From positions 1 through 64,000 of IMG/VR virus record IMGVR_UViG_3300035670_010555: DNA of 64,000 bases; one strand, 5' to 3'. Every line of letters begins with the position of its first letter. Position 1 is the stretch's first letter. The DNA is from a virus. Below are positions 30,212 through 51,189 of this stretch, piece by piece. Below the pieces are notes generated by a model that saw nothing but the letters and a program-made list of their open reading frames with translations, searched no databases and was not told where the DNA came from. A program made the translations under genes and the position numbers.

Positions 30212-30436
30212 TTAACCATTTAATAATGTTTTTATTCCGTTAGCGGTTTCTACTCTAACCTTTCTGTTGGCTGTAGTTTGATGACCTGCTCTTTCGATAA
30301 GACCGTCTCTTTCTCTCACTGTGTAACAATCACCTGTATCCAAGTCACAAACTTGTTTAGTTCCATCTCCGTTGTCTTCCTGTGAAAATCTTACAGATTT
30401 ACCAAGATAATTGTCTAATGCTGATTTAATGTTCAT
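30212..30436 (-). CDS. Small hypothetical protein (74 aa)
   Basis: Start revised to ATG 30436 (MNIKSALDNY), downstream of the hub stop and of a TATTTATA box. Confidence 0.7.
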   Translation of the reverse strand: MNIKSALDNYLGKSVRFSQEDNGDGTKQVCDLDTGDCYTVRERDGLIERAGHQTTANRKVRVETANGIKTLLNG

Positions 30437-30449
30437 AAGAATCTTTTTA

Positions 30450-30457
30450 TATAAATA
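30450..30457 (-). promoter_or_regulatory. Putative late-promoter box TATTTATA
   Basis: 13 nt upstream of ATG 30436. Confidence 0.55.
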
Positions 30458-30467
30458 TGTTACTATG

Positions 30468-36400: not shown

Positions 36401-38195
36401 TTGTATGAACATCATCCAAAAGACGGATGAAACCTTCTGCAGATGCCATAATAACCGCAAGCATATTTCTTACTGTAGGTTTGAACCCGATACCCGTCGC
36501 AGTATCCTCAACTTTTCTTAAAAGAGCGGTAGAAATTTGACTTTCGTAATCAGATAGTTTTTTGTTGGCTTGAGTTTCAAGTAATGCGATTTCTTTATCA
36601 AATCTTCCTTCATCTTCGAACACAAACCATTTTTCTTTTACCAAGGTACCTTTAGCTAAAAGTTCTAAGGTTTCAATAATTCCAGTTGGATTTTTTGGTA
36701 ACTCAATCGAAGTAGGAACAAAAAACTTTGTCAAATTAATCTTCGTTTGAGTTATATTTTCAACACTTGGGGTTACAATTCCAGTCTGAATTCTAGTAGT
36801 TTCTTCCCAATTTATTTCTGAAAAAACTGGAGCGGTAGCTTCAATCATATCATACTTTACAGGATTTGGAATCGGTGACGCTCCCTTGGACCCCAATGTC
36901 GGATTACTCGCTAGGGCCTCATTAAATTTCACAATATCACCCTGTAATTGAGTAATCGCAGTTTCTTTAGCTTCTCTTGATAGGTCTTTGAATACATATA
37001 ATTTTTGGCCTGTTTTGAGGACTATTGGATTAGTGTTTAGATTAATATTAAACCAAGATGTATTTGACCCTCTTATTGTTGTAAAATATTGTGTGAGAAC
37101 TGACTTATAATTTCTTATATTCGTTAAGGATTCAACTTCTGTTTTATCAAACGAGTCCGCGATTAGTGTTTCAAAATTTTCTAACTTATTCATAAGTTGA
37201 ACTAATGTCAACTCAGGAAAGTCAGGAGCAATTAATCCTTTAGCTTTGTATTCACTATAAACTTCTAATATTTTTTGATATCCCTTTTCAGCAACAAGTT
37301 GAGTAACAACCGCCTCATTAGAACCTAAATTATTAGCACCTCTTTCGGCTTGAGTACTTGCTTGGGACTCAGCCGCTTTATTAGGCTGTTGTGGACCATC
37401 TACTGTTTGAGTTACATCAAACCTTTGACTATACATGTGAGGAGCCGCCAATAGGTGACCCATGGAAACTTCATTTAAGATATTAAACTTGTATCCTACA
37501 AAAACCAATCTGACCTGATAGTTTCCACTAAACCCATTAAATGACGCATGGAAAGTTTTTAAGTTAAGTTGGTATCTAATCGCTTGTCCATAATACCCTT
37601 TTAATGTCAGATAGAATTGTGGGTAAGGTAAGTTAAAAAATGCCGAATAAGGTGAATTATTTCCTAATTGAAATAATCCTTTACCTTGGACATCTTCCAA
37701 TAACATTTCTACAGTAGGAATGAAGCTAGATGATGTTTTTATATTAATTGACGTAATTCCTAACAATCCGTTGTCGATTATATCTTTCTGATTAACAACA
37801 GTGTCAAGTATATAAGGGTCACTATTATCTGTTGCAGATTGTGATATCGCGGCTTTTTGATTTTCTCCTTTGAATTGTGTTGTATTTTCTCCAGTCAACT
37901 CATCATAATAACCTGTTCCAAGATATGAATTTTTACTAGGTTTCAGGAAATTCATTTTTGCAACAGAGATAGTCTTAACTCTATCATTAGGACTTCCTCC
38001 TACCGATAATTTTGTTCTTTTTAGAACATCGGCCTCCAAATTTGCATACATGACAAGATTTTCATGGTCAACAAGTCTTTCACTAATATTTCCAAAATCA
38101 TCTGTAGTTTTGTTAGGGTCGACTACAATAATATTGTTTTCGTCCAACTCAACTAAAATATTTCCACTTGTGTCCGCTTGTATGTTACCTGCCAT
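30468..38195 (-). CDS. Giant baseplate hub protein (gp27/VgrG-like), with a possible muramidase-like domain and an IPT/TIG domain
   Basis: SYKCSITSLGNALIQPTMYFNL..VPMFDGPYLITEVNHSI...FQTTFDG hub motif; PPVLSTFSPSAGFTGTIVQVNGRNF IPT/TIG motif; follows a gp53-like gene. Confidence 0.7.
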   Translation of the reverse strand: MAGNIQADTSGNILVELDENNIIVVDPNKTTDDFGNISERLVDHENLVMYANLEADVLKRTKLSVGGSPNDRVKTISVAKMNFLKPSKNSYLGTGYYDELTGENTTQFKGENQKAAISQSATDNSDPYILDTVVNQKDIIDNGLLGITSINIKTSSSFIPTVEMLLEDVQGKGLFQLGNNSPYSAFFNLPYPQFYLTLKGYYGQAIRYQLNLKTFHASFNGFSGNYQVRLVFVGYKFNILNEVSMGHLLAAPHMYSQRFDVTQTVDGPQQPNKAAESQASTQAERGANNLGSNEAVVTQLVAEKGYQKILEVYSEYKAKGLIAPDFPELTLVQLMNKLENFETLIADSFDKTEVESLTNIRNYKSVLTQYFTTIRGSNTSWFNINLNTNPIVLKTGQKLYVFKDLSREAKETAITQLQGDIVKFNEALASNPTLGSKGASPIPNPVKYDMIEATAPVFSEINWEETTRIQTGIVTPSVENITQTKINLTKFFVPTSIELPKNPTGIIETLELLAKGTLVKEKWFVFEDEGRFDKEIALLETQANKKLSDYESQISTALLRKVEDTATGIGFKPTVRNMLAVIMASAEGFIRLLDDVHTNAWDVKYDPVRKRAILNDLASAPSSDSQDDLKLASNAFEEETGLKLAEIPVYPWPQFFVETQDEKNKFQLKYIADPSVVDLTQGYLFDKWPEVEFVEEYMKGLTQKFQNPNSPPPLDNERDTNIININAIEFPSVGLAYSNKEEIKFFYEIWERQFLTSHYSGFIRGNSNQLNELITLNIEAEANNIISKLGISSPYLTLKLKNFNLNAQDYPEFLRTISNSGTGRAYQDFIRDFFVTPYIKRITENSFSILSTLDLGKIPQTATKSEALRSLVVNAPNDPLIVDTLPYTDQTWCLNNLNQGNSALSNQVYNTNKSLTIFEQRRIIANFSDVYNYTTNRPVTNFSYILNQNPTETIDTTGLSTYTTYGPLGLNAFYLNRNPQDFVATEGYINGTTPTRAFSPRSTTSMLNTPYFINAVQNGVYNSRLSGITYPYVQAAYMFLNSLPLATLREKYKSVSNNITTDLDYISSTFKKFGAIHKLPYAWILKYGSIWHRYKKYKESNVDILESAWKNFDYAGNYYPVTSAVTETYEFKYSNVDTKITLQNEEENQIQMQVGFYPKVINDFNVFLNGYDLYENYTSEEIQQSVNSGMKLYNFSSSNINSAKQGDKNLRLTTWSILLPNITIRPPVDCNPKDNTVGDDYFVIPSFGTQFNQTVDSCFSAQTTSPATVVDLTNNPNMYNGSVRCLWSAPNFGYFDSNQLAFPEPDSYLTLITTGNSQTPLYFLTQDNYTKIEEVFSVFEKKILDSFETEFLNFCKPIGNASTGRNIVTFGQSPVDPNATFKNFQSLFRSLMVVPAKTQTETDELYFNNVINNQYSLFQNGIKSFMEYDVIFKYGNPSNYERRIFDSYLSHNNTQEVVDPITFEPYVPNSLPSAGGNLLLSQSQINNRQAWTALETEVGFSTIPNVRYSSIGSYITDFFIDNNIAFTSENVTLLAPIIKMYATQKLNNPNLNAIQFQNQLNQYLERETLIQNNFLNGVLSRLRKDLPDQVQLPERAINSVITGDQSKVENYEVFKALNDKWISGGDWKTKTLFEDMLFLDRASRNIGDSILLDIFDLKYMFGVGGKTPGDFSLNQAMSVFTFISGILIKNNFVVMPLPAYVNFYNIQDVDVTATPRLDRPEQFANNLWGTFLDVDYRNSGPKMVCFYAGKPSQYLKLPKGDFKYRDDAFEMRRASGNPLLEDQQGKKDWALSNKCVGFNVDVGIRNQNIFYSMTVSQDNGVATSESINVQLDMANQASGRQIATQNNSLYNLYKNRSYKCSITSLGNALIQPTMYFNLRHVPMFDGPYLITEVNHSIQQGSFQTTFDGTRQGYFDLPTIDSFLQSINQNLITKLEEILKINKDQVKINATTNNVKSTQVVQQADNTKDTTNSCSSKITAPVYTNGGYEAVDATLTEMTPQVFAEALKRLIPNNVDLQVAIYTISYIRTYQEASNTGAGMFNGWNNNFATLSLSQDWFGQVSLLEKRYSCINIRTNPGNSSSEPIAHFESLDKYIQFMAGRLRSNLDRIVLLGLTKYYVCHWPVDNISEEYYDENKDEFLQTKQTFDKALTSAAESGLKTKNEILENIENNEKDGNQEQTPTVTPTIGQTCPPPVLSTFSPSAGFTGTIVQVNGRNFESVESIQVIDKVVELKDITVFNSETLRFILPEIQIPEGQTVATGRITVKTENGDIESLVDFTFNPALQNTTTSSPGGYEDTKTTEVISVSEQENVSGSANLQETMLNPPMFISEKIDNELGTEILTVKVDQNDYVGGVWKIEPQVEYSYIIDLIEVGPNNTVTRTSIETSESSKLLGFVSPDGQTFSITRQQFIDAEFSEVLDMEKGKRLEISTSIYLRARPENREKNPKDDTKSVRFRMIVPSSETGVQPQGSLSFIQRSTDVTLPSFQGPLYYNIRRPDGGFITYRFNCPLCKISKVFVAEVSKQTIPLNITITNNPDTKYTNVIDVNSSGRFVLSVIYENADNSGTFTATSNPFTL

Positions 38196-38508
38196 AATAA
38201 TAAAAATGATTTTCTAATGCTGCCTTATAGTCCTGTAAAGATGGTAATAACGGAAATGGGATAATCAATACCGCTCCGTCATAAATATTATTTTCAAGAC
38301 CTCCAAATTGCGGATTCGCCTGAAGAATTAGCCAGCTGAATACAGGTGAATTATAAAATTCTTGTGAAACTTTATCTAGTCTACTTTTAGCGACTTTATA
38401 GATAAATGCCTTATCTGTCGGTTTTTGAGGCAGGTATACAAAGGGTACAACTGTTTGTTCCCCATTAATAAGAAAATCACTATATCTATTCCAATATTGA
38501 TATGCCAT
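38185..38508 (-). CDS. Baseplate LysM-like protein (T4 gp53 / P2 gpX-like)
   Basis: RLDKVSQEFYNSPVFSWLILQANP...GAVLIIP. Confidence 0.8.
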   Translation of the reverse strand: MAYQYWNRYSDFLINGEQTVVPFVYLPQKPTDKAFIYKVAKSRLDKVSQEFYNSPVFSWLILQANPQFGGLENNIYDGAVLIIPFPLLPSLQDYKAALENHFYYYGR

Positions 38509-41500
38509 TAGTTAAGTTTTGATTTAGATATATATGCACCTGTAGTGTTTCCATTTGTATCATTCCAAGTTAATACATTTGTATTTTGATTTGTTGTATT
38601 TGCCAAACCTTTTATCATATTTTCTTGAGATGTTTTTTGTCCACTATCCGCAGAATTCTCTGTTGTAAAGGTCAAATTTCTTTGTTTGGTAGTGTCGAAT
38701 GGTGTATAAATTAAATAATCTTTCAAGTCATTTTTTTCCAAATTTTCTATGAATGATTTCGTAATATTATTTTCTTCTAAGAAAATAGGTCTAGCGGTTG
38801 CTATCCAATATGTATCAAATATTACTTCAATGTCAACAGATCCATCACCAAGTAATGCTTGGTTACCGAGAACATTTCCAATAAGTTCTTGTTTGAATAC
38901 CTCATATTTTTGCGCGTCGATTACATCATCAGAAATAGTCATATATACTCTTCTTTCAGCATTATTTCCTAAAAGAGGATTTGTACTGAATGGTAGGAAA
39001 ACTTGTTCGACTGTGACAGCATTTGATTTTCCGTTTACAGTTTCAAACACTAATGTCCCTTCATATGTGGTATTAGTCGCAGGATAAACAAATGGTCTTT
39101 TACCTTGAATAATAGTATTAAATGCTGCTATGTCTTGTTGTATTTTAACCGTGTCTTCAACTAATTCCAAATATGTGTCTGGACTTTCCGAAGTTGGGTG
39201 TATGTCTGTGGTTCCAGATGTTACATATATTCTTACAGGTCCGTTTTTAGCCTGAAGTCCATCAGTACCAGTGTTAGAATCAGTTGGGTCAAATAATATT
39301 GTATTCAATCTACCAAGAGTTTGTAGATATGTCTGTTCTTCATTTACCAAACTCTGTGTAATTGTTGATATCCCATTCTGAAATGAACTTCTTTTCCTTG
39401 ACACAAAATTTCGATAATTTTCTTTCAGTGCTCTGATTAACTTAGGCGATAAATTTTTCGATGGTTCAGAAATAAATTTAATAAATCCTTCTGTACCATT
39501 TTTTATATTTTCATCAAGTTGTACAAATATTTCATCAAATCTTTTCTCCACATTATTAGGTTTACCAAACAATACTACTGTATCAGCGGATACATTGAAA
39601 TTACCTTGAGTGTAATTTCTTTCTATCATCCATTGTTGTCTTACTGCATTGTTATATTGATTTACAGTTTCTTTGGTTTTATTGACAACATTTGTAAAAT
39701 ATGTTTGAGTATCAGTAACAACCTTACCCATAAATGCACTATAACTTATAACACCCGTCGTGATTCCACTTACATCTATTAAGGAACTAACTATCGTACC
39801 AATAGTATTATTATTATCTTGTCCATTGTTTGGAGCGGCACTGTTGACACCAGGTATTGGAGGAGGAACTTGACCCGCTAAAAATATTTGGTCTAATATT
39901 CTTGAAGACTCAATATCTGTTGAGTCCGCCCTTTCATCATAGATTTCAGTGTTAGCATAGTAATTGAATGTTAGTGCATTTTGTAACTTGTCAACCGATT
40001 CCTTCAATCCACTACCTCCAACAAAGTTAAATGATAATGTGACGTTTGCAATCATTGGTTGAACACCAATTCCTTCAGGATTAATATCTAACCCTTCATA
40101 GTTAATTGCTAACGATGTAGGAATAATCTTCGTATTATAAAAATCGCCTACTCTCAATACCAATACTGGAGGTGCTCCAAATGATGTGTTTGTAGCATTA
40201 TTATACTGTAGTTCTTGCTTACCACCTGGTGTGGATTGTTTAACTGTTGGTATTGTATCACCAGGTCTCATACACTGTTGTAAAAACGTCAACCTTGAAT
40301 TTAATCCTTCAGGTGTCATTGAATGGAATGATGGTTGAAAGAACTTTAATTTGTCTTTCAAGTTATCATAAACCATCGGCGTTTCAGATTTGATAGTTTC
40401 AAAATAATCGCACTCGGACAATAAAGCTCTAACGACTTTTTTTGTAATATTATCTCTTGGTTCCCATCTTGGTTCAATGACTGGTTCAGGTACAGTCTGA
40501 GTGACAACATTTCCAATCAACACTGGAATTGTACCTGAACTTGTAGTCGGATTTGTCTGTCCTCCTGGTGTTCCTTCACCATTAGGCCCTGTCTGTGGAG
40601 CTTTTAAGTTTGGAACTATCTTTGAAATAAATGACCTTCTACAAGCCATTGCTCCTACTGTAAAGATTTCTTTCGCACCAACCAAAGTATCCCCTCCTTG
40701 AACAGTAGTATCACTACATCCAAATGTTTTCCCGTTTGGTTCCAAAGAATCGATATATGGTCCTTTAGTCAAATTACTTTTCTTTGGATTAGATATCGCA
40801 ACCTCTCCGAGAGCTCCAGCTCGTCCACCCCCACTTCCAGTATCTTCTTTAACAATTAATCTAACAGGATTTGGTTCCATGTATTTTTTTGTTGCATCGT
40901 TTTCCACAAAAAATTTGACTGTTGCCGCTATTCTACGTTTTGATAACTCAAGATTATATGATTCAGTTGCAGGTGCTGAACAACTTGAACTAATGTATAC
41001 TGTTACAGTCCCTTCGTTAGTTTCTAATTGTTTTCCCAAATCTATCGCAAACTCATCCATTGCCTTATAATTTGGAGTAACAACTGTATCGAAAAAACTT
41101 TTGGTTTCTGTAGCATTTGATTTTTTGGAATACTGCTCATTAACTTCTGTAGTATATCTTGCGTATTCAGTTGTATAATTTATAGTTGTGTTCGGTTTTG
41201 GAAAATCGTTTCCAAAATAAAATCCTAGTTGTAGATATTTGTCGAAGTTTAAGTTTGTATTACCACCTCCTCCTTCTTGAGCAAGTGGTTGATCTCCTCC
41301 ATTAGGTGAAAAAGCTCCTGATTCTATGGTTCCACGAGTATATACAATTTGTTCTCGCGTCATTTCCTTTGAAGAAATTGCCTGTTGTAATTCGAACAAA
41401 TCATTTGGATTTACTGTTACATATTTTTTTGCCAACTCATAGATATCATATTTTCTACATCCAGCAAAAAATGATTCTAAAATACTATCAATACGAGTCT

Positions 41501-43619
41501 TGTTTGTTTCGTTATTCAAAACTTTATTCACAATGACATTAAGAACTGATGGATGGTCTACTACAATTTTCCATTGTAGTGATCCCGTTCTTGATGTATT
41601 TTTATAAGTATATATTGGTTCAGGTCGTCCCAAAAAGTCAGATTGATTCCAATTCGATGATATGCTTTCACTGAATGTTAATCCATATGGTGGAAACCAC
41701 ATAACTCTACCATCATTAGGTCCTCTCTCACAAACAGGTAAATCAGACGTTGAAAATCCTGGAGTACTAGATGTTCTCCATGCCAAATTTTCTAAAGAAA
41801 ACATATATTTTTTGGCAACCGCATTATTTATTGTACCAACAATATTCGTTGAATCCTGTCCACCTTCTTGTTTATTTGGTGCAATATTAAGGTTATAAGT
41901 CTTATCTAATACTGAATACGCAAATCTTCTGCCTTCAGTAGTAATACCATCTTGTTTCTGTAAATCGTTATACTGTAGATATGGTAAATCTTTAGCAAAA
42001 ACACGACAATACTCAGTACCTACCTCTTGACCGATAGCACCAACGTATCTATAAACTCTTGAACCTTTAGTAAGTTCTTTATATCCATCATTGAATACTT
42101 TACTTACTTGGTCTATTGCATTTCCAACGTGTTGAAGACGCTTACCTCCTTGAGGTTGGCTATCAATTATTCTTTGTGTTTTATCAAGGATTGAACCGTC
42201 CCTAAACTCATTATTGACCGATTCGGTATTAACGTAAGACGATGGTCTGAAGTCCTCATCTTGTTCAGTAACCTCACCACCAATACCAACTTTCTTACCA
42301 GCATTACCTCTGTACTTAGGTGAAACCCAAGTAAATCCACCTTCGATACCACCACCATTACTATATGTCGGCCCATTCGCACCAAGTCTTATTGATTGAC
42401 TTGGCCCTTCATATAACTGCGCCAACTCTGAAGGGCCATAGACAGGTGACTGTTGTTCAACACCAAATTGGTTAACTGGAACATCTCCTACAGGAGAAAA
42501 TACTTGGGATGGGTTAGAAGTTATACTTCCAACATAAAAGTTACTATTATCAGATACCGTACCTAAAAGAGTACCACCTAACCTTTGGAAAAAGTTTCTT
42601 GGGAAATTCGGTTTGTATCTGTTGAAATCAATGTTCTTGAATAGTCTAGACCTTTGTCCCGCTCCCATGTTATTAAACATGATTTGTGAACCTGTTTCTC
42701 CTCCGCCCATTAATCGGTTGAAGAACCTACCGACACCACTTCTTCTGAAAGCATTACCTAACTGTTGTATAGTTGTAGGTTGTCCTAAAGTAATGTTAGG
42801 GTCAAAATATGATCCAGGTATAGGTGATACAGGTAAAATACTACCTCCAAGTCTTAGTGCAAAATTAGTTGCTGCAAGTATTGGGTTTGCGGTTACTGTA
42901 ATGGTATAAACTGGTTCAATGATAGGTACAACACCAGCCAATATATTGACAATATCTGTCCCGCTTGAAACATTGAGAATATTTGCTCTACCTATTGTAT
43001 CTTGGCGTATTTGGTCCGCGATTCTTTGTTCAAACTCTCTCCTCAAAGTTTGAGCACCTAAACGTGCAATAAATGAATCTTGACTTAATAACCCATTACT
43101 ACCACTCGGATCAGGCGATAATAATATCGATACAGGTGTATAGGTTGATGATACAAAAGTTGTTGGATATGGTTGATTATTAAATGTGTTTCTTGCTAAA
43201 GGTCTATCTACTGACGAAAAAAATGGAGCACTATCTATTGGTAATTGATTTCCATTAGAAAAAACGTTGAGTGGTTTCCATTTTTGAGACTCAGGTCCTG
43301 ATTGGTCAAGTATGTTTGCATCTTGATATCCATACTCTCCCTCATTTGATTTTGTATTTAATAACGATCCAGGGTCTGGAACTTGTTCATAACCTCCTTC
43401 ATTTCCATATTGATTTAGTGGATATAATTTATTGGCAAAAGAAGGTTCATCAATCAATTTATCAGGACTATCTTGAACTGACGAATTCGATTGAACGTAT
43501 TCCGTATCGATTGGTTGTGTAGGTCTATTTGGAGCTTTTGCATAGGGTGTTAAATTCCTAGTCAAAAGTTTTTTTCTAAACCCCTCTGAATTTGCTAAAT
43601 CTAATAACGGACTTGCCAT
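38508..43619 (-). CDS. Baseplate tail-tube initiator-like protein (gp48/gp54 class) with an inserted OmpA-like domain
   Basis: WNQSDFLGRPEPIYTYKNTSR and FGAPPVLVLRVGDFY...PMIANVTLSF halves flank an FYFGND...YNLELSKRRIAATVKFF...ALGE...CRR segment. Confidence 0.65.
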   Translation of the reverse strand: MASPLLDLANSEGFRKKLLTRNLTPYAKAPNRPTQPIDTEYVQSNSSVQDSPDKLIDEPSFANKLYPLNQYGNEGGYEQVPDPGSLLNTKSNEGEYGYQDANILDQSGPESQKWKPLNVFSNGNQLPIDSAPFFSSVDRPLARNTFNNQPYPTTFVSSTYTPVSILLSPDPSGSNGLLSQDSFIARLGAQTLRREFEQRIADQIRQDTIGRANILNVSSGTDIVNILAGVVPIIEPVYTITVTANPILAATNFALRLGGSILPVSPIPGSYFDPNITLGQPTTIQQLGNAFRRSGVGRFFNRLMGGGETGSQIMFNNMGAGQRSRLFKNIDFNRYKPNFPRNFFQRLGGTLLGTVSDNSNFYVGSITSNPSQVFSPVGDVPVNQFGVEQQSPVYGPSELAQLYEGPSQSIRLGANGPTYSNGGGIEGGFTWVSPKYRGNAGKKVGIGGEVTEQDEDFRPSSYVNTESVNNEFRDGSILDKTQRIIDSQPQGGKRLQHVGNAIDQVSKVFNDGYKELTKGSRVYRYVGAIGQEVGTEYCRVFAKDLPYLQYNDLQKQDGITTEGRRFAYSVLDKTYNLNIAPNKQEGGQDSTNIVGTINNAVAKKYMFSLENLAWRTSSTPGFSTSDLPVCERGPNDGRVMWFPPYGLTFSESISSNWNQSDFLGRPEPIYTYKNTSRTGSLQWKIVVDHPSVLNVIVNKVLNNETNKTRIDSILESFFAGCRKYDIYELAKKYVTVNPNDLFELQQAISSKEMTREQIVYTRGTIESGAFSPNGGDQPLAQEGGGGNTNLNFDKYLQLGFYFGNDFPKPNTTINYTTEYARYTTEVNEQYSKKSNATETKSFFDTVVTPNYKAMDEFAIDLGKQLETNEGTVTVYISSSCSAPATESYNLELSKRRIAATVKFFVENDATKKYMEPNPVRLIVKEDTGSGGGRAGALGEVAISNPKKSNLTKGPYIDSLEPNGKTFGCSDTTVQGGDTLVGAKEIFTVGAMACRRSFISKIVPNLKAPQTGPNGEGTPGGQTNPTTSSGTIPVLIGNVVTQTVPEPVIEPRWEPRDNITKKVVRALLSECDYFETIKSETPMVYDNLKDKLKFFQPSFHSMTPEGLNSRLTFLQQCMRPGDTIPTVKQSTPGGKQELQYNNATNTSFGAPPVLVLRVGDFYNTKIIPTSLAINYEGLDINPEGIGVQPMIANVTLSFNFVGGSGLKESVDKLQNALTFNYYANTEIYDERADSTDIESSRILDQIFLAGQVPPPIPGVNSAAPNNGQDNNNTIGTIVSSLIDVSGITTGVISYSAFMGKVVTDTQTYFTNVVNKTKETVNQYNNAVRQQWMIERNYTQGNFNVSADTVVLFGKPNNVEKRFDEIFVQLDENIKNGTEGFIKFISEPSKNLSPKLIRALKENYRNFVSRKRSSFQNGISTITQSLVNEEQTYLQTLGRLNTILFDPTDSNTGTDGLQAKNGPVRIYVTSGTTDIHPTSESPDTYLELVEDTVKIQQDIAAFNTIIQGKRPFVYPATNTTYEGTLVFETVNGKSNAVTVEQVFLPFSTNPLLGNNAERRVYMTISDDVIDAQKYEVFKQELIGNVLGNQALLGDGSVDIEVIFDTYWIATARPIFLEENNITKSFIENLEKNDLKDYLIYTPFDTTKQRNLTFTTENSADSGQKTSQENMIKGLANTTNQNTNVLTWNDTNGNTTGAYISKSKLN

Positions 43620-43669: not shown

Positions 43670-45526
43670 TCAGTAGGTCGCGGCTCCCCCTCCTCTGAAT
43701 ACATTAGTAGGATTAGTAACTCTAACTATATAATCCTTAAACTTATCTTCATTTAATTTATCCGAGATAGTTTTCGTAATTTGTTCTTTCTGATCTGAAC
43801 TCAATCCTGTCGGCATTTCTTGGAAATTAACGTTTACCTTTATTTCTCCAAGTAACTCAATTAGACTCTTTTGTTCTTTTACTTGGTCAGCAACTGTACC
43901 TAAATTTCGGTTTGCACCTGACATTCCTTCAGATGTGACTTTTGTCCAAAAATCATCCTCAGTTGTCGTTCCTCCTTTTCCCCCACCTTTGAACATTTCA
44001 AAATCAAGCCCTTTAATTTTACCACTTAAATTATCAAGAAGTAAATCTATCTTGTCAGTCATATTTCCTACAAAACCCCCTTTTTGTGACAATTCCTCTT
44101 TTATTTGGTCGCCCGCCTTTGACAACATATCTTTGGATGAGTCTGTTATAGTCCCAAATGATGCGGTAGAATTTGTCACCAATGTATCCAACGCCCCTTT
44201 TATATCTCCCTTAACAATCATATCTTCAACTGACTTTCTAAAATTAGTTGAAGCGGCTTCACTCATTTCCCTAATTCTTTCCATAGAAATATTTTCAACA
44301 CCAGCTCTTCCCGTAACTTCAGCCAATGTTCTACCCCCTTCTCGTAAATCTTGTATATTCTTATCTGTTAAAATACCACCCAAAACGGCATATTTGATTG
44401 CCGCGATATCACTCTGTATGATCTCATCAACAGTTAATTGAGCTCTTTGTAACTCTTCTACAGTCATAGCTTCTGTTTTTTGTTCCTTAATCAAATCATT
44501 TAATTGTTCTTGAGTAAGTTCTCCTAACTTGACGGCTTCTTCCTGCCCTTTTATTTTTACTTCATATTGTCCACCTTCTCCCATCCTACCGATGTTAGCA
44601 AGATATTGTTTGTCCTCCTCATTTTCGAATTTTAGACTTGGGCTTATTTGACCTAATCTCTGATCGAGTTCGGCAGCAGCTAATCCCAATTTCGACATTT
44701 CTTTCGCGCTAACTCCCGTCTGAGATTCCAACTCTTTTAAGGTTAATACTCCTTGTGGATTTATTTTGAAAGTTTTGGTTTTTTCATCGAAGTAAGTGAA
44801 TTGTTGTGCTACCTCTACTAAACTGTCTTGCAATGATCCAGGGTCATTTATTGACGCGTTCATCAAGGCGAAAGGGTCGGCCAAATTACCGACCGCTAAT
44901 CCTAATCTTTGAAATGCCGCTGCAGTTTCGACCGCTCCTTCAGGACTTAAAACTCTTTCAGCTAACTGAAAAGTTTGTTGCATGTCAAACCTCAACATGG
45001 ATGCTTGAGCAGCCATTTTGGTTAATCCTTGAACTCCCCCCTCAAATTGGTATCGGTTCATTTGCTCCATGTTCTTTTGAACATCTTGCATAACTTGCCG
45101 AGCATTTCCACCAATTCCTCTTACATAATCTATTGAGCCTTCAAGAGCATCTGATATCGATTGAATCCCGACCCCAACGTCCAAAAAACTGTTGCTTAAA
45201 TCTTGAGCACTTATTCCAAGTACTTTGGACGCAGAAAATAAAGCTTTTATTTCTTCTTCATTAGCAACGACATTTCTTCGTGCCGCCACTCCTACTTCTT
45301 GTATAATTCTACCGACATCCTTAATATCCCCCCCTAAACTTCTTACAGCGGGTAAAGAGTCCGCCACAGCTCTCTCAAATTCGAAAACTCTCTCTCTTCC
45401 TTGTGTGAAGGTACCGATAATTTGATTAGATATTTTATCTAAACTTTGTCTAACATCATCAAAACTAAAATTGTCTTTGGGTTTTTCCGCTCCAGTACCT
45501 GAAGCCGTTGCTTCTTGAAAAAACAT
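43670..45526 (-). CDS. Probable tape measure protein
   Basis: Alpha-helical A/Q/E/K-rich composition; canonical position after tube and chaperone and before the hub genes. Confidence 0.65.
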   Translation of the reverse strand: MFFQEATASGTGAEKPKDNFSFDDVRQSLDKISNQIIGTFTQGRERVFEFERAVADSLPAVRSLGGDIKDVGRIIQEVGVAARRNVVANEEEIKALFSASKVLGISAQDLSNSFLDVGVGIQSISDALEGSIDYVRGIGGNARQVMQDVQKNMEQMNRYQFEGGVQGLTKMAAQASMLRFDMQQTFQLAERVLSPEGAVETAAAFQRLGLAVGNLADPFALMNASINDPGSLQDSLVEVAQQFTYFDEKTKTFKINPQGVLTLKELESQTGVSAKEMSKLGLAAAELDQRLGQISPSLKFENEEDKQYLANIGRMGEGGQYEVKIKGQEEAVKLGELTQEQLNDLIKEQKTEAMTVEELQRAQLTVDEIIQSDIAAIKYAVLGGILTDKNIQDLREGGRTLAEVTGRAGVENISMERIREMSEAASTNFRKSVEDMIVKGDIKGALDTLVTNSTASFGTITDSSKDMLSKAGDQIKEELSQKGGFVGNMTDKIDLLLDNLSGKIKGLDFEMFKGGGKGGTTTEDDFWTKVTSEGMSGANRNLGTVADQVKEQKSLIELLGEIKVNVNFQEMPTGLSSDQKEQITKTISDKLNEDKFKDYIVRVTNPTNVFRGGGAATY

Positions 45527-45551: not shown

Positions 45552-45577
45552 AAAAGGACTGATTTTTCAGTCCTTTT
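45552..45577 (-). terminator. Intrinsic terminator closing the chaperone unit
   Basis: AAAAGGACTGA-AAAA-TCAGTCCTTTT; contains the TGA stop of the 45567 frame. Confidence 0.8.
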
Positions 45578-45746
45578 TGTTTAGTTCAACCCATTTATCT
45601 AAAAGATACTTCCTAATGAATATTGGCATTATTAAAAAATCAGAATAAGATATATTCAGAAGTGTCTTGAGATAGTAAAATTCATCTATCTGTCCTTTCC
45701 TATAATCAGAAGAAAGGACGAAAAAAGTCCACCCCAAACCCAACAT
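45567..45746 (-). CDS. Tail assembly chaperone C-terminal extension (gpT / gp51-like), probably reached by frameshift
   Basis: Unannotated 59-codon +1 frame: ...FVLSSDYRKGQIDEFYYLKTLLNISYSDFLIMPIFIRKYLLDKWVELNKKD*. It fills the gap exactly up to the terminator. Confidence 0.75.
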   Translation of the reverse strand: MLGLGWTFFVLSSDYRKGQIDEFYYLKTLLNISYSDFLIMPIFIRKYLLDKWVELNKKD

Positions 45747-46449
45747 TAACTGTTAGTTTCTCTCCTGATGGGGCCATTACTGTTCTCGTTAAATCTAGTT
45801 TAGGTTCATTTTCTTCCATGAACTTTCTTATGTATTTGGAATCCGCAATTGGCATTTGGTCTATAAATCTTGCGATTTCAGATTTATCTGTTACCCCATT
45901 TGCTTCAATAATTTGTTTGTTTAATCTCCAAGTAACTTTTGGTGCGGTTCTCCCTTGTGGATATGATTCCGACATTTTTTGAATTTCCAAAATTTCACCA
46001 TAAGTTAAAGGTTTAATCTTTACAGTTGTCTGAGACTTCGGTAACATAGTTACAAAAGTTCCATCATCAGATGGTTGTACCCCTTTAATAACATCTAATT
46101 CGTCAAGTCTAACAGCGCCTTTGAATGGTTTTTTTGTAATTGGGTCAACCAAGTTTAATTCCATTTCAGGTCCGAACGAGGTATTTCTTAAAAAAATTAA
46201 TATTGCTTCAACATCTCCTTCCAATAAATCTTCAATACGAACATCTGGTTCGTAAATCTTTGTTCTTAAAAGATTTTGAGTCATGTCGTTACCTCCAGCC
46301 ATTAGGATGTTTTCATCATTTGCTGTCAGGTATCCAACTTTGATTGATTTTTTCTTATTCTTGTAGAATAGACCTTGTGTCGGTAAAGGCACAACGTCGT
46401 GAGGTAACGTAAAATTCGATTGTCCGTGTTCTCTTGCTTGATTATCCAT
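45706..46449 (-). CDS. Tail assembly chaperone / baseplate hub assembly protein (T4 gp26-like)
   Basis: VPLPTQGLFY...YLTANDENIL...GDVEAILIFLRNTSFG...DSKYIRKF; lies between the tube and tape-measure genes. Confidence 0.75.
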   Translation of the reverse strand: MDNQAREHGQSNFTLPHDVVPLPTQGLFYKNKKKSIKVGYLTANDENILMAGGNDMTQNLLRTKIYEPDVRIEDLLEGDVEAILIFLRNTSFGPEMELNLVDPITKKPFKGAVRLDELDVIKGVQPSDDGTFVTMLPKSQTTVKIKPLTYGEILEIQKMSESYPQGRTAPKVTWRLNKQIIEANGVTDKSEIARFIDQMPIADSKYIRKFMEENEPKLDLTRTVMAPSGEKLTVNVGFGVDFFRPFF

Positions 46450-46455
46450 ATAAAA

Positions 46456-46490
46456 ATTTAACCGTAAAGTTTAGTGCTTTACGGTTAAAT
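46456..46490 (-). terminator. Perfect 14-bp stem-loop after the tail tube gene (terminator or attenuator)
   Basis: ATTTAACCGTAAAG-CACTAAA-CTTTACGGTTAAAT then TTTT; ends 6 nt before ATG 46449. Confidence 0.7.
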
Positions 46491-46530: not shown

Positions 46531-47019
46531 TTAGTAAACAAGTACGCAACGGTCCATTCTAAGTGTTGCGTTGATTGTCGCCAATCCATCCTGTGCGTAA
46601 CTCAAAGCGTTGAAGTTTACGTCAGTCAAAAATGTACCATAAAGAATCCATTTTTCTACAACAACTCCGGTTGGGTCCAACATTTCGAGGTCAACATCTT
46701 TTTTATAACCCGCAGCATAACCCATACGACCTGTCACAGATTCAGCGTGTAAACGTACCCATTCCATAAGAGCCTGAGCCGCTGAAGGTCCAATCGGATC
46801 TCTAAACACCGCTGGAATTGTTTGCCATGTGAACTTACCTGCAACATAAGTTTCAGTATTCAAGAAAGGAATTGGAACTGGGTTTATAACAATATGTGGT
46901 CTTGCAGAAGATTCAACAAACCATTCATTTATACCAAGTGATGATGGAAACCTTAAGATAAAACGATTCTGTCGTTTTGGTTCGTAAGGAATCGGCATTT
47001 TCATTAACAAATCAGCCAT
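46531..47019 (-). CDS. Tail tube protein (T4 gp19-like)
   Basis: YEPKRQNRF, YVAGKFTW, GYAAGYKKD..LEMLDPTGVVVEKW.L.G. Confidence 0.9.
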   Translation of the reverse strand: MADLLMKMPIPYEPKRQNRFILRFPSSLGINEWFVESSARPHIVINPVPIPFLNTETYVAGKFTWQTIPAVFRDPIGPSAAQALMEWVRLHAESVTGRMGYAAGYKKDVDLEMLDPTGVVVEKWILYGTFLTDVNFNALSYAQDGLATINATLRMDRCVLVY

Positions 47020-47112: not shown

Positions 47113-47943
47113 TTATTTAACTTCCTGCTTAACTCCTCCAGCAGTAGAATAAGTCTTTACTATATTATCTGGTTTATTTTTGAAGTGTTTTTGCATTACT
47201 TCTATATTTTTTGGATCATCGTCACTAAATCCTATAGATAAGTTATCTGGATTAAATTTATTACTAATATCCTTTTTTAAGAATGCTCTTTTATTTAATA
47301 CTGCGGCCATCGCCTTGATGTAATTTACAAAAGCCTCCATAGCCTCTACTTTAGCTTCTTCAGGATTAACCGCTCCTTGGTCATCACCAAAAGACACTGG
47401 ATGATACTTATTGAGTTCCAAATATGACTTGATTAATTCTTCGTCACTCATTTCATCTTCACCTACAAAAGACCGATATTTTTTAAGATTTTTAATTAAC
47501 TCGTCTTTATCTATCCCGTTGAATCCCTCTATAATATAATTATAAATTGCTTCTTTTATAGTGTTCGGGTTATGTCCCCTCGCAGTAATTATTGCAAATA
47601 TTGAACCGTTATTGATTGCCTCTCTAAAATCATCGAATGCTGGTCCTTTTTTTGCCCTCATAGCATCCACCAAAAAATCTTTGTCCCCGTCGGTTCTAAA
47701 ATTTCTGAATGGAGAATCACTATAACCCACAATCGTATTACCTTTATAACTGAATGGTTCTTTTCCTATTTGATGTCTAAACTCTGCGAAATCATCAGTA
47801 GACATTCCGACTTCATTGCCACTCTCATCTTTAACTAAAATTTTAGTCGGCATATGAACTATATTATCGTCCCAATCGAACGCGTAATATTTTAAGTCTG
47901 GAGTACCCTCACTTTTGAATCCTTCTGTAAAAATTTTTTTCAT
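47113..47943 (-). CDS. HAD-superfamily phosphatase-like protein
   Basis: Motif I YAFDWDDNI, motif II IITARG, motif IV GFSDDD. Confidence 0.75.
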   Translation of the reverse strand: MKKIFTEGFKSEGTPDLKYYAFDWDDNIVHMPTKILVKDESGNEVGMSTDDFAEFRHQIGKEPFSYKGNTIVGYSDSPFRNFRTDGDKDFLVDAMRAKKGPAFDDFREAINNGSIFAIITARGHNPNTIKEAIYNYIIEGFNGIDKDELIKNLKKYRSFVGEDEMSDEELIKSYLELNKYHPVSFGDDQGAVNPEEAKVEAMEAFVNYIKAMAAVLNKRAFLKKDISNKFNPDNLSIGFSDDDPKNIEVMQKHFKNKPDNIVKTYSTAGGVKQEVK

Positions 47944-47979: not shown

Positions 47980-50900
47980 TTAGATATTTTCGAACGAAGC
48001 TCCTGTTGGAGTGATAAAGAATTCGATATCGATGAATTCTAATGCCTTCGTAGGTTTCAAGTATATCTTTCCTGTTAATGTGTTTCTATCTAAATCTTCA
48101 GGTGAAGAAGAAACTGTAACTCTGAAGTCGAATAGACCTCTGTCTCTTCTAATTGAATCTAAGATAGGGTTAACACTGTCCAAGAATTGTTGTCTAACGA
48201 TTTGGTCATTTTGTTCGAACAACAATCTTACTGCTACTGCTGAAATCAACTTACGAGCTTGAAGTAATAATCTTCTTACGTTTAATCTATTAAGTGCAGT
48301 GTCAGCAACTTGTAAAGTTTTGTTACCCCAAATTACAGTTCCTACATCAGAGAAAGTTGCGATAGGGTTGATTCTGCCTTGATAAAGAGTGTCTCTATCT
48401 TCTTGAGTCAACTTAACTCTCGCTTTGATTGAGTTCACAAGACCTCTTGTGTAACCCGCTGAAGCGAACCAAGGGAATGCGATGTTATCTGTCAATGCCA
48501 AGTTTCTACAAACTTCACCTGTAGGTGGAAGATAGATTTGGGTATTATTTACAGTATCTCTTGTAAGAATCCAAGGATAATAAGTCGCAGTATAGTTAGA
48601 ATCGATACCTGTGTTATCCAAGTTGTCAACCGCTTCTTGAGGATAAATAATATCCTGTGGATTTGTTGCATCAGGAGTAAACATTTGGTAATCAGGTGTA
48701 GTTGCAATGTAAACTGAGTCCGCTCTTGAGAATTGTACCATGTCGATAGCTTCTTCTACAAGGTTAGAGTTGTTTACATAATCAATACTTGATGTTGCAA
48801 ATACGTTGATGTTGGTTGATTCAGGGTTAGCGAACGTTAAGATACCAAGTAAGTAAGCGTAGTAGTCGGTGTTTGCGAAATCTTGAGTATTGTTTTGAAC
48901 CACAATTCTCTTGAATAATCCAGTACCAGTTGCGTTTGGATATCTTTGAGACGGAGATGCTCCCGCCAAGAATCCTGTAGCTCCGATTTGGAATCTGTCC
49001 TCATTAGTCCTAAACTCTCTGTAAATGTCCCAACCATCAAAACCACCAGCAAAACATACCGTATATTTTCTTGAGAAGATGAAGTAATACGGATTCTCTT
49101 GAGTTTCAGGATCTCTCGTAAAATCAGCAACCCCACATTCAAATGCAGTTTGTCCACTCGTTAGTGAAGAGTTAGAAATTGTAACTACAGTTGCGCCTGA
49201 GTCCATGTGGAATCCTTTACTCAAGTAGTTCCAAGTTGCTCCTTCAACAGGTAATGGAGAATCTACCCAATTCAAAGGATTTTGTGTACCTTTGTATTGT
49301 AAGAATGAATCATCAATTCCGAATTGACTTGAGAAACCTAAATAACTTCTTCTAACAATATCTCCTGAAGATTCAGTTACATCAGTTGGTGCTCCGAATG
49401 GAGGGTTATAGATAACTTCACCAGGGAAATAATATTTTGTTTTGAAAATTGGAACTGGTGAAGGGTTACTTACTGAAGAGTATTCTCTTTGAGTGTAACC
49501 GTAGAAACCGCAAGGAATCGCATCGATTGGAGCTTCGTCAGCCAACTCAATCATTATGTAACGTGAAATCAAAGCGTATTCTCCATCACTTGAACCGATT
49601 TTCTTAGCAACGAAATTGTTTGAATTAGGATTCATGTTACAGTTAGTAAATTTCTCAATTACCACAGGGTTAGCATCAGTATCGAAGAAATTTCTTACTA
49701 ACACATCGAATGACATATTATTAAACGATAAGTTAGTGATAGAAACTTTTACTTCTGTGTTTGCTGCATTACCATCGGAAATTGATATAAACTTGAATAA
49801 GTTATAAACCTTGTTACCTCTGAGTTCAGACACTAAGAAAGGTGTACTTGGTGACTTATATTGGGTTACATTGTAAGCGATTGATTGTGGGTCTTGACTT
49901 CTAGCTCCTTCAAGTGCAATTAAATTACAATTCAAACCACGAATATATCCTTGGTTATAAGCGTAAGCCAAAGTTCCTGGATAAATTTCTTCAACATATA
50001 CCGGTACTTCATTTCTTGATTTACCAAAGTTATCAACACCTAATACTTTTGTTATGTACTTAGGAGAAGATGCTGACATAGATGTTTCAAAAGAGAAATT
50101 GTCGTTGTCTTTTGTAACACCTGAAATTAAGAATGACTCAAAAGGAGATTGAGTGACTCCTGAGTATTGTTCAGTACATACTAATTGTAAATCAGTTAAA
50201 CCACTAACTTCATAAATTGGTCCGTGGTTATCACTTGTTGTACTATTCGTATATAAAGATATACCTCTTGAACGTAAAGTCGCAACAACCATATTGTTGT
50301 ATTCAGAGTAAGCAGTACCTGAATAGTTATAAACCGTACCTGATATAGTACCTGAAAATGTAGATGATGCTCCTGAAGTTAGAGAAGATACATAATAAAA
50401 GAATGAGTATCCTGAATAAGCATTTCCTGATGTAATATCAAAATTAGCATAATACCATGGGTCATTTTCATCAGAGGACAAGTCATTAGTTGCAAGATTG
50501 ACAGTGTCACAAGCATATTCGTTAATGATGTTTGAATAAGTCGCGGTCAAATCATAAAAATCACTTTCAGGAAGAACTCCATAAACAACCGCAGTATTTG
50601 CGGATAGAGAAGGAGTATCCATGATATTATCAAGATTACTTGTAAAATCTAATCCTAAAGTTGATGTACTACCATCAGATAATCTGTATTGACTGTTAAA
50701 TTTAGCCAAAACTTCAGAAGGTAATGCTCCACCAACAAATTCAACAGTATTTCCTGAAGAAGACCCTGTGAAATCTGCCGACCAAGTAGTTCCTGTTACA
50801 GGACTGAGACCAATAGTTAATGGATCGACATTTGCAGTCACCTTAATACTCCAAGACGGACCAGCGTCATAACCTGATAAACCTAAAATTCTTGTTACGA

Positions 50901-51189
50901 AAAGTTGATTTGATTGTTGCAAATATGACTTTGCAATATATGCAGCTTCATACTTAGGGATTTGTGTGTTTATAAATTTTGTAGGTTCAGTCCCCCCAAA
51001 ATATGATTGAAACTCATCGTAGTTCGTGATGAAGATAGGTTCGAATGCGGGACCTTTGATTGTTTCCCCGACTAAACCTAACGTAGTCACACCTACACTT
51101 TGAGCCACAAATGATAAGTCAGTTTCAGACGTATATACTCCAGGCGATACGTATACCTTTTGATTTACTTGTGTTGCTTGAAAAAACAT
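47980..51189 (-). CDS. Contractile tail sheath protein (T4 gp18-like)
   Basis: VSPGVYTSETD N-terminus; YYPW, PWFASAGYTRG, LYQGRINPI, WGNKTLQ, RLNVRRLL, LKPTKALEFI. Confidence 0.95.
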   Translation of the reverse strand: MFFQATQVNQKVYVSPGVYTSETDLSFVAQSVGVTTLGLVGETIKGPAFEPIFITNYDEFQSYFGGTEPTKFINTQIPKYEAAYIAKSYLQQSNQLFVTRILGLSGYDAGPSWSIKVTANVDPLTIGLSPVTGTTWSADFTGSSSGNTVEFVGGALPSEVLAKFNSQYRLSDGSTSTLGLDFTSNLDNIMDTPSLSANTAVVYGVLPESDFYDLTATYSNIINEYACDTVNLATNDLSSDENDPWYYANFDITSGNAYSGYSFFYYVSSLTSGASSTFSGTISGTVYNYSGTAYSEYNNMVVATLRSRGISLYTNSTTSDNHGPIYEVSGLTDLQLVCTEQYSGVTQSPFESFLISGVTKDNDNFSFETSMSASSPKYITKVLGVDNFGKSRNEVPVYVEEIYPGTLAYAYNQGYIRGLNCNLIALEGARSQDPQSIAYNVTQYKSPSTPFLVSELRGNKVYNLFKFISISDGNAANTEVKVSITNLSFNNMSFDVLVRNFFDTDANPVVIEKFTNCNMNPNSNNFVAKKIGSSDGEYALISRYIMIELADEAPIDAIPCGFYGYTQREYSSVSNPSPVPIFKTKYYFPGEVIYNPPFGAPTDVTESSGDIVRRSYLGFSSQFGIDDSFLQYKGTQNPLNWVDSPLPVEGATWNYLSKGFHMDSGATVVTISNSSLTSGQTAFECGVADFTRDPETQENPYYFIFSRKYTVCFAGGFDGWDIYREFRTNEDRFQIGATGFLAGASPSQRYPNATGTGLFKRIVVQNNTQDFANTDYYAYLLGILTFANPESTNINVFATSSIDYVNNSNLVEEAIDMVQFSRADSVYIATTPDYQMFTPDATNPQDIIYPQEAVDNLDNTGIDSNYTATYYPWILTRDTVNNTQIYLPPTGEVCRNLALTDNIAFPWFASAGYTRGLVNSIKARVKLTQEDRDTLYQGRINPIATFSDVGTVIWGNKTLQVADTALNRLNVRRLLLQARKLISAVAVRLLFEQNDQIVRQQFLDSVNPILDSIRRDRGLFDFRVTVSSSPEDLDRNTLTGKIYLKPTKALEFIDIEFFITPTGASFENI

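Follow-up and report, generated by a model that had tools for sequence, protein, structure and literature searches.

Does the gene next to the tail tube gene of an uncultured freshwater giant phage encode one protein or two? The question is raised by positions 1 to 64,000 of IMG/VR record IMGVR_UViG_3300035670_010555 (the window, 64,000 nucleotides in all). An open reading frame (ORF) of 247 amino acids (aa) in the tail module ends GAC TTT TTT CGT CCT TTC TTC TGA, and the +1 frame through its run of six T residues (T-run) stays open for 50 more codons. A first-pass annotation had taken this as a programmed +1 frameshift in a tail assembly chaperone gene, with tRNA-Phe slipping from UUU to UUC to give a protein of about 293 aa alongside the 247-aa one, and had pointed to an ATG at 45746 as the possible start of a separate protein. 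Read on the minus strand, which carries every gene around the locus, the ORF end, the slip site, the 50-codon frame and the ATG were all exactly as described. Comparison with relatives fits the slip and its two products, both the site and the frame being kept in all relatives examined. We consider it very probable that this one gene yields two chaperones, a short form like gp26 of phage T4 and a long form like T4 gp51, through a +1 slip made by part of the ribosomes.

Reading frames of the chaperone gene in close and distant relatives

The window lies on a contig of 169,854 bases with 34.5% G+C, whose closest relatives are freshwater metagenome contigs of up to ~326 kilobases (kb). The 247-aa protein scores 38.3 bits with PF12322 (T4_baseplate), for which the cut-off is 24.5, in a match from residue 31 to 231 that takes in positions 11-205 of the 219 in the profile; it also matches phrog_150 ('baseplate hub') with an E-value of 3.9e-14. 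The phrog_150 match of the joined frames reaches profile position 251 of 282, compared with 233 for frame 0 (the frame of the 247-aa ORF). Judged by these families, the gene encodes the short form, plus the extension, of a baseplate-hub assembly chaperone of the T4 gp26/gp51 type. The 247-aa protein had no match to lambda-type tail chaperone families in Pfam or PHROGs. The label 'tail assembly chaperone' thus holds in so far as PF12322 is a hub-assembly chaperone family, but not in the sense of a recognized lambda-type family.

An open off-frame stretch of 50 codons has an estimated chance of ~0.02 at this base composition, and the -1 frame at the slip site closes after 13 codons. Close relatives were collected from 80 IMG/VR loci (76-96% protein identity), and the 44 distinct sequences among them were compared without gaps over 880 columns. 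The sequence GAC TTT TTT CGY CCT TTC TTC TRA and the 247-aa ORF are kept in all 80, with CGC rather than CGT as the A-site codon in 25 of the 44 distinct sequences. The two longest invariant stretches of the alignment, columns 721-731 and 733-742, span the slip site to the frame-0 stop, whereas over the gene as a whole just 8% of third positions in frame 0 do not vary. Variation falls on the third positions of frame 0 up to column 720 and, from column 745, on those of the +1 frame. Mean entropies for the three codon positions are 0.26, 0.15 and 0.96 in the gene body read in frame 0, and 0.36, 0.22 and 0.83 in the extension read in the +1 frame. This column-wise pattern indicates that the T-run is exactly where purifying selection passes from frame 0 to the +1 frame. 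Among the 120 close homologues listed, all are 247 aa long and none of those protein clusters has the long form.

More distant relatives show the same break. Searched by phmmer against 1.84 billion cluster representatives, the joined protein had 1259 matches, most of which align as far as query residue 243 (the slip site), stop 4 to 6 residues beyond it and so share the break. The DNA was read in seven distant lineages (27-45% identity), and in all seven a homologous extension lies in the +1 frame. The change of frame, whether +1 or -2, has to fall after the last stop of the +1 frame and before the frame-0 stop; in L087 this confines it to AAC TTT TTT CGT CCT TTC TTC GGG CTA. Both L086 and L087 have a +1-frame stop shortly before the T-run (4 and 1 codons, respectively) and no ATG, GTG or TTG after it, which excludes separate initiation in these two. 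The extensions align across lineages with the consensus ...L(S/T)xx(D/E)YR...(D/E)E(I/F)(F/Y)...MP(I/V)xxR(K/R)(Y/W/F)...

The first-pass annotation had named UUU_UUU_CGU_C as the slip site and pointed to UUU_CGN as the +1 site of influenza PA-X and amalgaviruses. TTT CGT C or TTT CGC C is what is found in the 80 close relatives, L086 and L087, but UUU_UGG, UUU_UAU and UUU_CUA occur in other lineages (Table 1). Given these A-site codons, the element common to all +1 lineages is UUU followed by U or C (UUU_Y), as tRNA-Phe needs for +1 re-pairing, and not UUU_CGN. In Xanthomonas phage XacN1 the homologous extension is in the -1 frame, behind T_TTT_TTT, a heptamer of the classical kind, and with the same FF junction.

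Some relatives need no change of frame. At least six representatives with a single ORF (P0182, P0200, P0233, P0236, P0255 and P0256; 304-344 aa) align up to query residues 285-292, and a seventh (P0272, 301 aa) up to residue 261. The joined protein of the window is colinear with these one-ORF forms through the junction, for example ...NFFGLPDNYRENLMDEIF... compared with ...DFFVLSSDYRKGQIDEFY..., and the one-ORF junctions hold two hydrophobic residues (FF, FL or LL), not three. In L091 a 288-aa PF12322 paralogue is encoded directly upstream of the one-ORF long form P0182 (320 aa), to which it is 34% identical; it ends ...LFWPNAKI and a stop, the same short tail as in the frame-0 products of the +1 lineages. 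Short and long PF12322 paralogues stand in tandem in L090 as well. From the one-ORF and two-gene lineages and those with a -1 or a +1 shift, it appears that the PF12322 family supplies a short and a long form in three ways: by two genes, by a -1 shift and by a +1 shift. The alignments show directly that the slip site is conserved and that constraint switches frame there, that the extension is homologous between relatives, and that some relatives have one-ORF or two-gene versions; together these make a strong comparative case for a genuine +1 frameshift.

In L091 (2794-4622) and L090 (2-1188) the short paralogues keep the ending ...LFWPNA(K/D)I and stop with no overlapping frame to constrain it. 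The F-(F/L)-W-P tail may itself be functional.

The T4 proteins fit the same pattern. The first ~200 residues of gp26 (208 aa) and of gp51 (249 aa) each match PF12322, and gp51 has ~48 additional residues at its C-terminus. In a joint alignment T4 gp26 ends three residues past the conserved FF and gp51 goes on. When an alignment of joined and one-ORF forms (A4) was compared with 17 gp51 homologues (A3) by hhalign, the probability was 79.6% (E-value 1.5e-5) and the match was colinear over 177 columns to both C-termini, pairing DEFYYL...SYSDFLIMPIFIRKY with DEIFTFY...NYSLNSISKMIPAERGF. The extension profile did not match gp26. BLASTP of the joined protein against T4 gp26 and gp51 gave nothing significant, and it is profiles alone that link them. 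The assignment of gp26 as the short form and gp51 as the long form is thus well supported at the profile level, without a strong pairwise match. The earlier suggestion that gp26/gp51-like pairs can be linked by a frameshift agrees with these results: one-ORF homologues cross the junction, gp26 ends there and the gp51 tail aligns with the extension.

An AlphaFold model of the 293-aa form, built from a 33-sequence alignment, had a mean predicted local distance difference test score (pLDDT) of 90.4 and a predicted template modelling score (pTM) of 0.81. The extension is predicted to form three helices (residues 247-264, 268-273 and 276-290; pLDDT 72-89). Foldseek of the model against the PDB found nothing at E ≤ 0.001. 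An exhaustive VIA-align search gave 3fgx (Z 6.8), 3klu (YqbN, Z 5.5) and 2ob9 (HK97 tail assembly chaperone, Z 5.4) among its top four rows, all matching the N-terminal ~100 residues and all with Z values under the tool's reliable level. We take YqbN to be an XkdN-type chaperone from a Bacillus prophage. As the Z values are below that level, these rows are a hint that the PF12322 family may share the chaperone fold.

The proposed slip and its alternatives

Standard reading of the gene would give the 247-aa short form, the counterpart of T4 gp26. On some ribosomes the tRNA-Phe in the P site would move one base forward on UUU_UUU_C, exchanging UUU for UUC, while a rare arginine codon (CGU or CGC) waits in the A site. 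The tRNA-Phe anticodon, GAA, pairs better with UUC. Reading on in the +1 frame would give the 293-aa long form, whose added 50 residues would make a small helical domain like the C-terminal tail of gp51. Its junction would yield the tryptic peptide LTVNVGFGVDFFVLSSDYR. The two forms would then act jointly, as lambda gpG and gpGT do, to build the complex of hub and tape measure, the shared part holding tape measure or hub proteins and the extension adding a second contact. We infer the partial and ribosomal nature of the shift, the rare A-site codon as its driver and the cooperation of the two forms. A joint role in hub and tape-measure assembly, with the helical extension as the additional contact, is suggested by the roles of lambda gpG and gpGT together with the genetics of T4 gp51.

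Codon use on the contig, per 1000, is 3.4 for CGT, 0.2 for CGC and 23.4 for AGA. The 17 tRNA genes of the contig lie together at 133-142 kb, and one of them, for tRNA-Arg(UCU), serves the dominant AGA codon. No tRNA-Phe and no unusual anticodon was found among these 17, which come from 170 kb of a genome of ~320 kb. Four-base decoding by a phage tRNA was considered and rejected: in the 170 kb covered, part of that ~320-kb genome, ARAGORN predicted ordinary tRNAs, and none of the 17 lies in the window.

A Shine-Dalgarno-type stimulator at the site is not plausible from the sequence. L086, L088 and L089 lack the G-rich GGGGTGG that precedes the site, and a Shine-Dalgarno core is found upstream of only 5 of 116 genes on the contig, below background, A/T-rich leaders being present instead. 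This near-absence of Shine-Dalgarno motifs suggests a Bacteroidota-like host. A local hairpin close to the T-run (Table 1) has a z-score of -3.26 compared with shuffles of a 65-nucleotide stretch. It was rejected as a family stimulator, being lost in many relatives (about a quarter of the close ones) and oddly spaced at 1 nucleotide. Two pairings are open to the GTCC just after the T-run: with a downstream GGAC, within this 10-bp hairpin, or with the upstream GGAC of GTG GAC (45715-45735, minus strand). The upstream pairing would leave the T-run in a loop, which may be a switch or a coincidence.

Several observations weigh against a ribosomal +1 slip to a gp51-like long form. The rarity of CGY was counted in genes of the phage and not in those of its host. 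In the 116 long ORFs of the contig TTT TTT C occurs in frame nine times and TTT CGT C twice, so that the motif is insufficient as a signal alone. None of eight distant loci has significant downstream RNA structure, and no family-wide stimulator was found. The profile of the extension by itself matches the same gp51 residues weakly, with E-values of 0.014 and 0.008. The T-run, finally, is of a kind that invites two other routes to the same frame: it is six long in the window clade, L086 and L087 and seven long in Mel-JY01 and L089, which suits slippage of RNA polymerase, and six T residues let tRNA-Phe re-pair two bases back and so reach the identical frame by a -2 shift.

Polymerase slippage on the T-run would yield mRNAs one U shorter or two U longer and, translated in the ordinary way, a long form that is identical or different by one Phe. 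Efficient slippage usually needs runs of ~8-9. In LR756508 (TTT C TAT), L088 (TTC TTT T) and immuto (TTT C TTT) the runs are too short for it. In addition, the GAC before the T-run never loses its C, even though Asp is more often encoded by GAT on the contig, and this holds the run at six. We regard slippage as unlikely.

A -2 shift by the ribosome has been proposed for the chaperone genes of phage Mu. Here it would add one extra Phe (GVDFFFVLSS...), and its junction peptide would be that of the +1 product with FFF. The two-base re-pairing is impossible in LR756508 (AAC TTT CTA), L088 and immuto, where a +1 move on UUU_Y is possible, and the one-ORF junctions have two, not three, hydrophobic residues. 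Lineages with TTT C TAT or TTC TTT T therefore disfavour both the -2 shift and polymerase slippage, and the -2 shift is best considered very unlikely.

The extension might instead be part of a separate 59-aa protein (MLGLGW...) started at the ATG at 45746 by independent or coupled translation, with no fusion made. All 80 close relatives do have this ATG, and in Mel-JY01, immuto and XacN1 a small ORF downstream has been annotated by gene callers. Nevertheless, the alignment of homologues, which the first-pass annotation had called for to set the site against the ATG, revealed that the T-run and the +1 frame are conserved and the ATG is dispensable. In one close relative (L008) a silent change from GTT to GTA puts TAG directly after the ATG, leaving the separate ORF without a start codon, and neither L086 nor L087 offers any start codon beyond its last +1 stop. 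Read in the +1 frame, the codons from the ATG to the T-run are unconstrained: since the frame-0 third position is the +1 second position, they change radically (G/D/A/V, L/S, W/L/S). One-ORF homologues cross the junction, and the extension of XacN1 begins at the same FF from the other frame. The ATG also lies 40 nucleotides inside a coding region, whereas the genes of this phage have A/T-rich leaders without Shine-Dalgarno sequences. Separate translation of the 59-aa ORF is accordingly given hardly any more credit than the last alternative.

That last and least credible alternative is an unprogrammed break with one form only (a sequencing or assembly error, a dead gene, or 100% recoding by a four-base-reading tRNA): homopolymer runs are error-prone, but the frame structure and the frame-0 stop are repeated in 80 independent metagenome contigs and seven distant lineages, the skipped base and next codon vary (C+GTC, T+GGC, C+TAT, T+ATC), so that there is no common four-base word beyond UUUY, and T4 and the L091 lineage retain both a short and a long gene.

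The locus and its surroundings

Terminator-like hairpins flank the gene on both sides, so that the 247-aa ORF and its extension look like one small unit (Table 1). The +1 frame had been said to stop inside a terminator, and the downstream hairpin indeed contains its TGA. The gene had also been placed between tail tube and tape measure genes. The tube gene was identified by its PHROGs match, but the 618-aa ORF on the other side is a tape measure gene by position only, because no family matched it: it had no match in Pfam, in PHROGs or by tblastn against the phage collection. At the corresponding position of Flavobacterium phage immuto, a tape measure gene is annotated.

Table 1. Features of the chaperone locus (window coordinates) and slip sites of distant lineages
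Feature	Positions	Strand	Remarks
Frame-0 ORF, short form	45706-46449	-	247 aa; matches PF12322 and phrog_150; ends ...GVDFFRPFF and stop
Whole recoded gene, long form (P0001)	45567-46449	-	293 aa; TTTC read as one step
Proposed +1 shift site, TTT TTT CGT C	45717-45726	-	T6 run 45726-45721, CGT 45720-45718, following C 45717; invariant except CGT/CGC in 80 loci (44 distinct)
+1-frame extension, VLSSDYRKGQ...ELNKKD and TGA	45567-45719	-	50 codons; gp51-type C-terminal tail by alignment; TGA at 45569-45567
Rival ATG	45744-45746	-	Start of 59-aa ORF 45567-45746 in +1 frame; probably unused; +1 codons to T-run unconstrained
Local hairpin, GUCCUUUCUU / AGGAAAGGAC	45692-45719	-	10 bp; begins 1 nucleotide past T-run; role uncertain
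Terminator-like hairpin	45552-45577	-	Contains stop codon of the extension
Terminator-like hairpin	46456-46490	-	Between tail tube and chaperone genes
Tail tube gene	46531-47019	-	phrog_4542 'tail tube protein', E-value 1.8e-21; directly upstream of chaperone gene
276-aa ORF	47113-47943	-	Between sheath and tube genes
Tail sheath gene	47980-51189	-	Upstream context
618-aa ORF at tape measure position	43670-45526	-	Label by position only
1703-aa ORF	38508-43619	-	Tail module
Site in L086			GAG TTT TTT CGT CCC
Site in L087			AAC TTT TTT CGT CCT
Site in L088			AGC TTC TTT TAT CCC
Site in L089			AAC TTT TTT TGG CCT
Site in Microcystis phage Mel-JY01			AAC TTT TTT TGG CCT
Site in Flavobacterium phage immuto			AGC TTT CTT TGG CCT
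Site in Megaphage LR756508			AAC TTT CTA TTC

Two further ORFs of the tail module, of 1703 and 276 aa, had no match in Pfam or PHROGs. Elsewhere in the window, a 98-nucleotide overlap of two minus-strand ORFs (30212-30565 and 30468-38195, the latter of 2575 aa) was considered and set aside as an over-extended ORF call only. The true start of the ORF at 30212-30565 is likely to be an ATG at ~30435, which has an A/T-rich leader and comes after the TAA of the large ORF.

Other variation was seen within the PF12322 family. Two cysteine pairs (CxxC ... CxxC, zinc-ribbon-like) are kept in T4 gp26, gp51 and most relatives. The window clade has lost all four cysteines (residues ~102-105 and ~226-229) and has DPITKKP and APSGEK there instead. 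Many relatives (P0140-P0270) are 340-500 aa long, with an extra ~100-190 N-terminal residues before the PF12322 domain. Precomputed tables put PF28602, besides PF12322, on relatives of T4 gp51.

Relation to T4 and to known frameshifts

T4 gp26 and gp51 are hub assembly chaperones, and the hub cannot be assembled without gp51, which is not part of the virion (Leiman et al. 2010, PMC3004832, Table 2); they have so far been described in this role without a known mechanism (PMC3004832). The T4 pair and the window gene share the PF12322 family, the end of gp26 coincides with the end of the frame-0 product and the gp51 tail aligns with the +1 extension. They differ in that T4 has two separate, divergently transcribed genes that do not adjoin the tape measure gene 29, whereas the window phage would obtain both forms by a frame change from one gene, which has the tube gene on one side and the presumed tape measure gene on the other.

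Atkins et al. (2016, PMC5009743) describe G-T frameshifting as widely conserved in long-tailed phages 'except T4'. It seems rather likely that gp26 and gp51 are the missing counterparts of gpG and gpGT, that two genes, a -1 shift and a +1 shift are interchangeable ways to make such a pair, and that the +1 class is distinct and widespread in bacteria. If so, the T4 exception vanishes, as T4 has the short and long pair as two genes (26 and 51), and T4 would have seemed to be without a tail-chaperone frameshift because its pair comes from two separate genes. A large group of environmental giant phages would also be mis-annotated at the chaperone gene. No published frameshift in gp26/gp51-type genes, and no statement of their equivalence to G/GT, was found in a literature search that was thin on subscription journals. 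What is new here is a probable +1 shift in the T4-type chaperone family; tail chaperone pairs linked by a frameshift were already known. Cultured relatives exist in Flavobacterium phage immuto, Microcystis phage Mel-JY01 and Xanthomonas phage XacN1.

The +1 class would be marked by UUU_Y and a sense codon that is decoded slowly, with neither a stop codon nor a Shine-Dalgarno stimulator. It would apparently extend to hosts that do not use Shine-Dalgarno sequences. It would differ from +1 shifts of the prfB type, as the A-site codon in the window is a sense codon and not a stop, and there is no plausible Shine-Dalgarno-like stimulator.

There are +1 precedents in tail or structural genes of tailed viruses. 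The tail chaperone of Halorubrum myovirus HSTV-2 is likely to use a +1 frameshift, and Listeria phage PSA has +1 frameshifts in structural genes (Zimmer et al. 2003), according to the papers that cite them (PMC5009743 and PMC9024508, respectively). These cases involve other protein families and hosts.

The closest match to the site itself is from influenza A virus. The +1 site of PA-X, UCC_UUU_CGU, is proven, with a mechanism based on a slow A-site codon (Firth et al. 2012, PMC3498833). The core UUU_CGU and the following C are identical in the window, and the same move of P-site tRNA-Phe from UUU to UUC is proposed. PA-X is eukaryotic and unrelated, and in the phage family CGY is just one of several A-site codons (with UGG, UAU and CUA). 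If the reading is correct, the gene would be a natural example from bacteria of +1 shifting on UUU_CGY, for which the proven case to date is that of influenza virus.

The closest match in gene arrangement is lambda G/GT. The window gene likewise has the tube gene upstream and the presumed tape measure gene downstream, and would give short and long products with a common N-terminus. It would differ in shifting +1 on UUU_Y, not -1 on an X_XXY_YYZ heptamer, and has no sequence match to the lambda proteins. A conserved frameshift of tail assembly chaperone genes was reportedly described by Xu, Hendrix and Duda in 2004 and is reviewed by Atkins et al. (PMC5009743). It is the arrangement of G/GT genes that is conserved, and neither their sequence nor the direction of the shift. 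In lambda the tape measure is coated by the part that gpG has in common with gpGT, and the tube protein is bound by the T part (PMC5009743), a division of labour like that proposed here for the shared part of the PF12322 chaperones and their extension.

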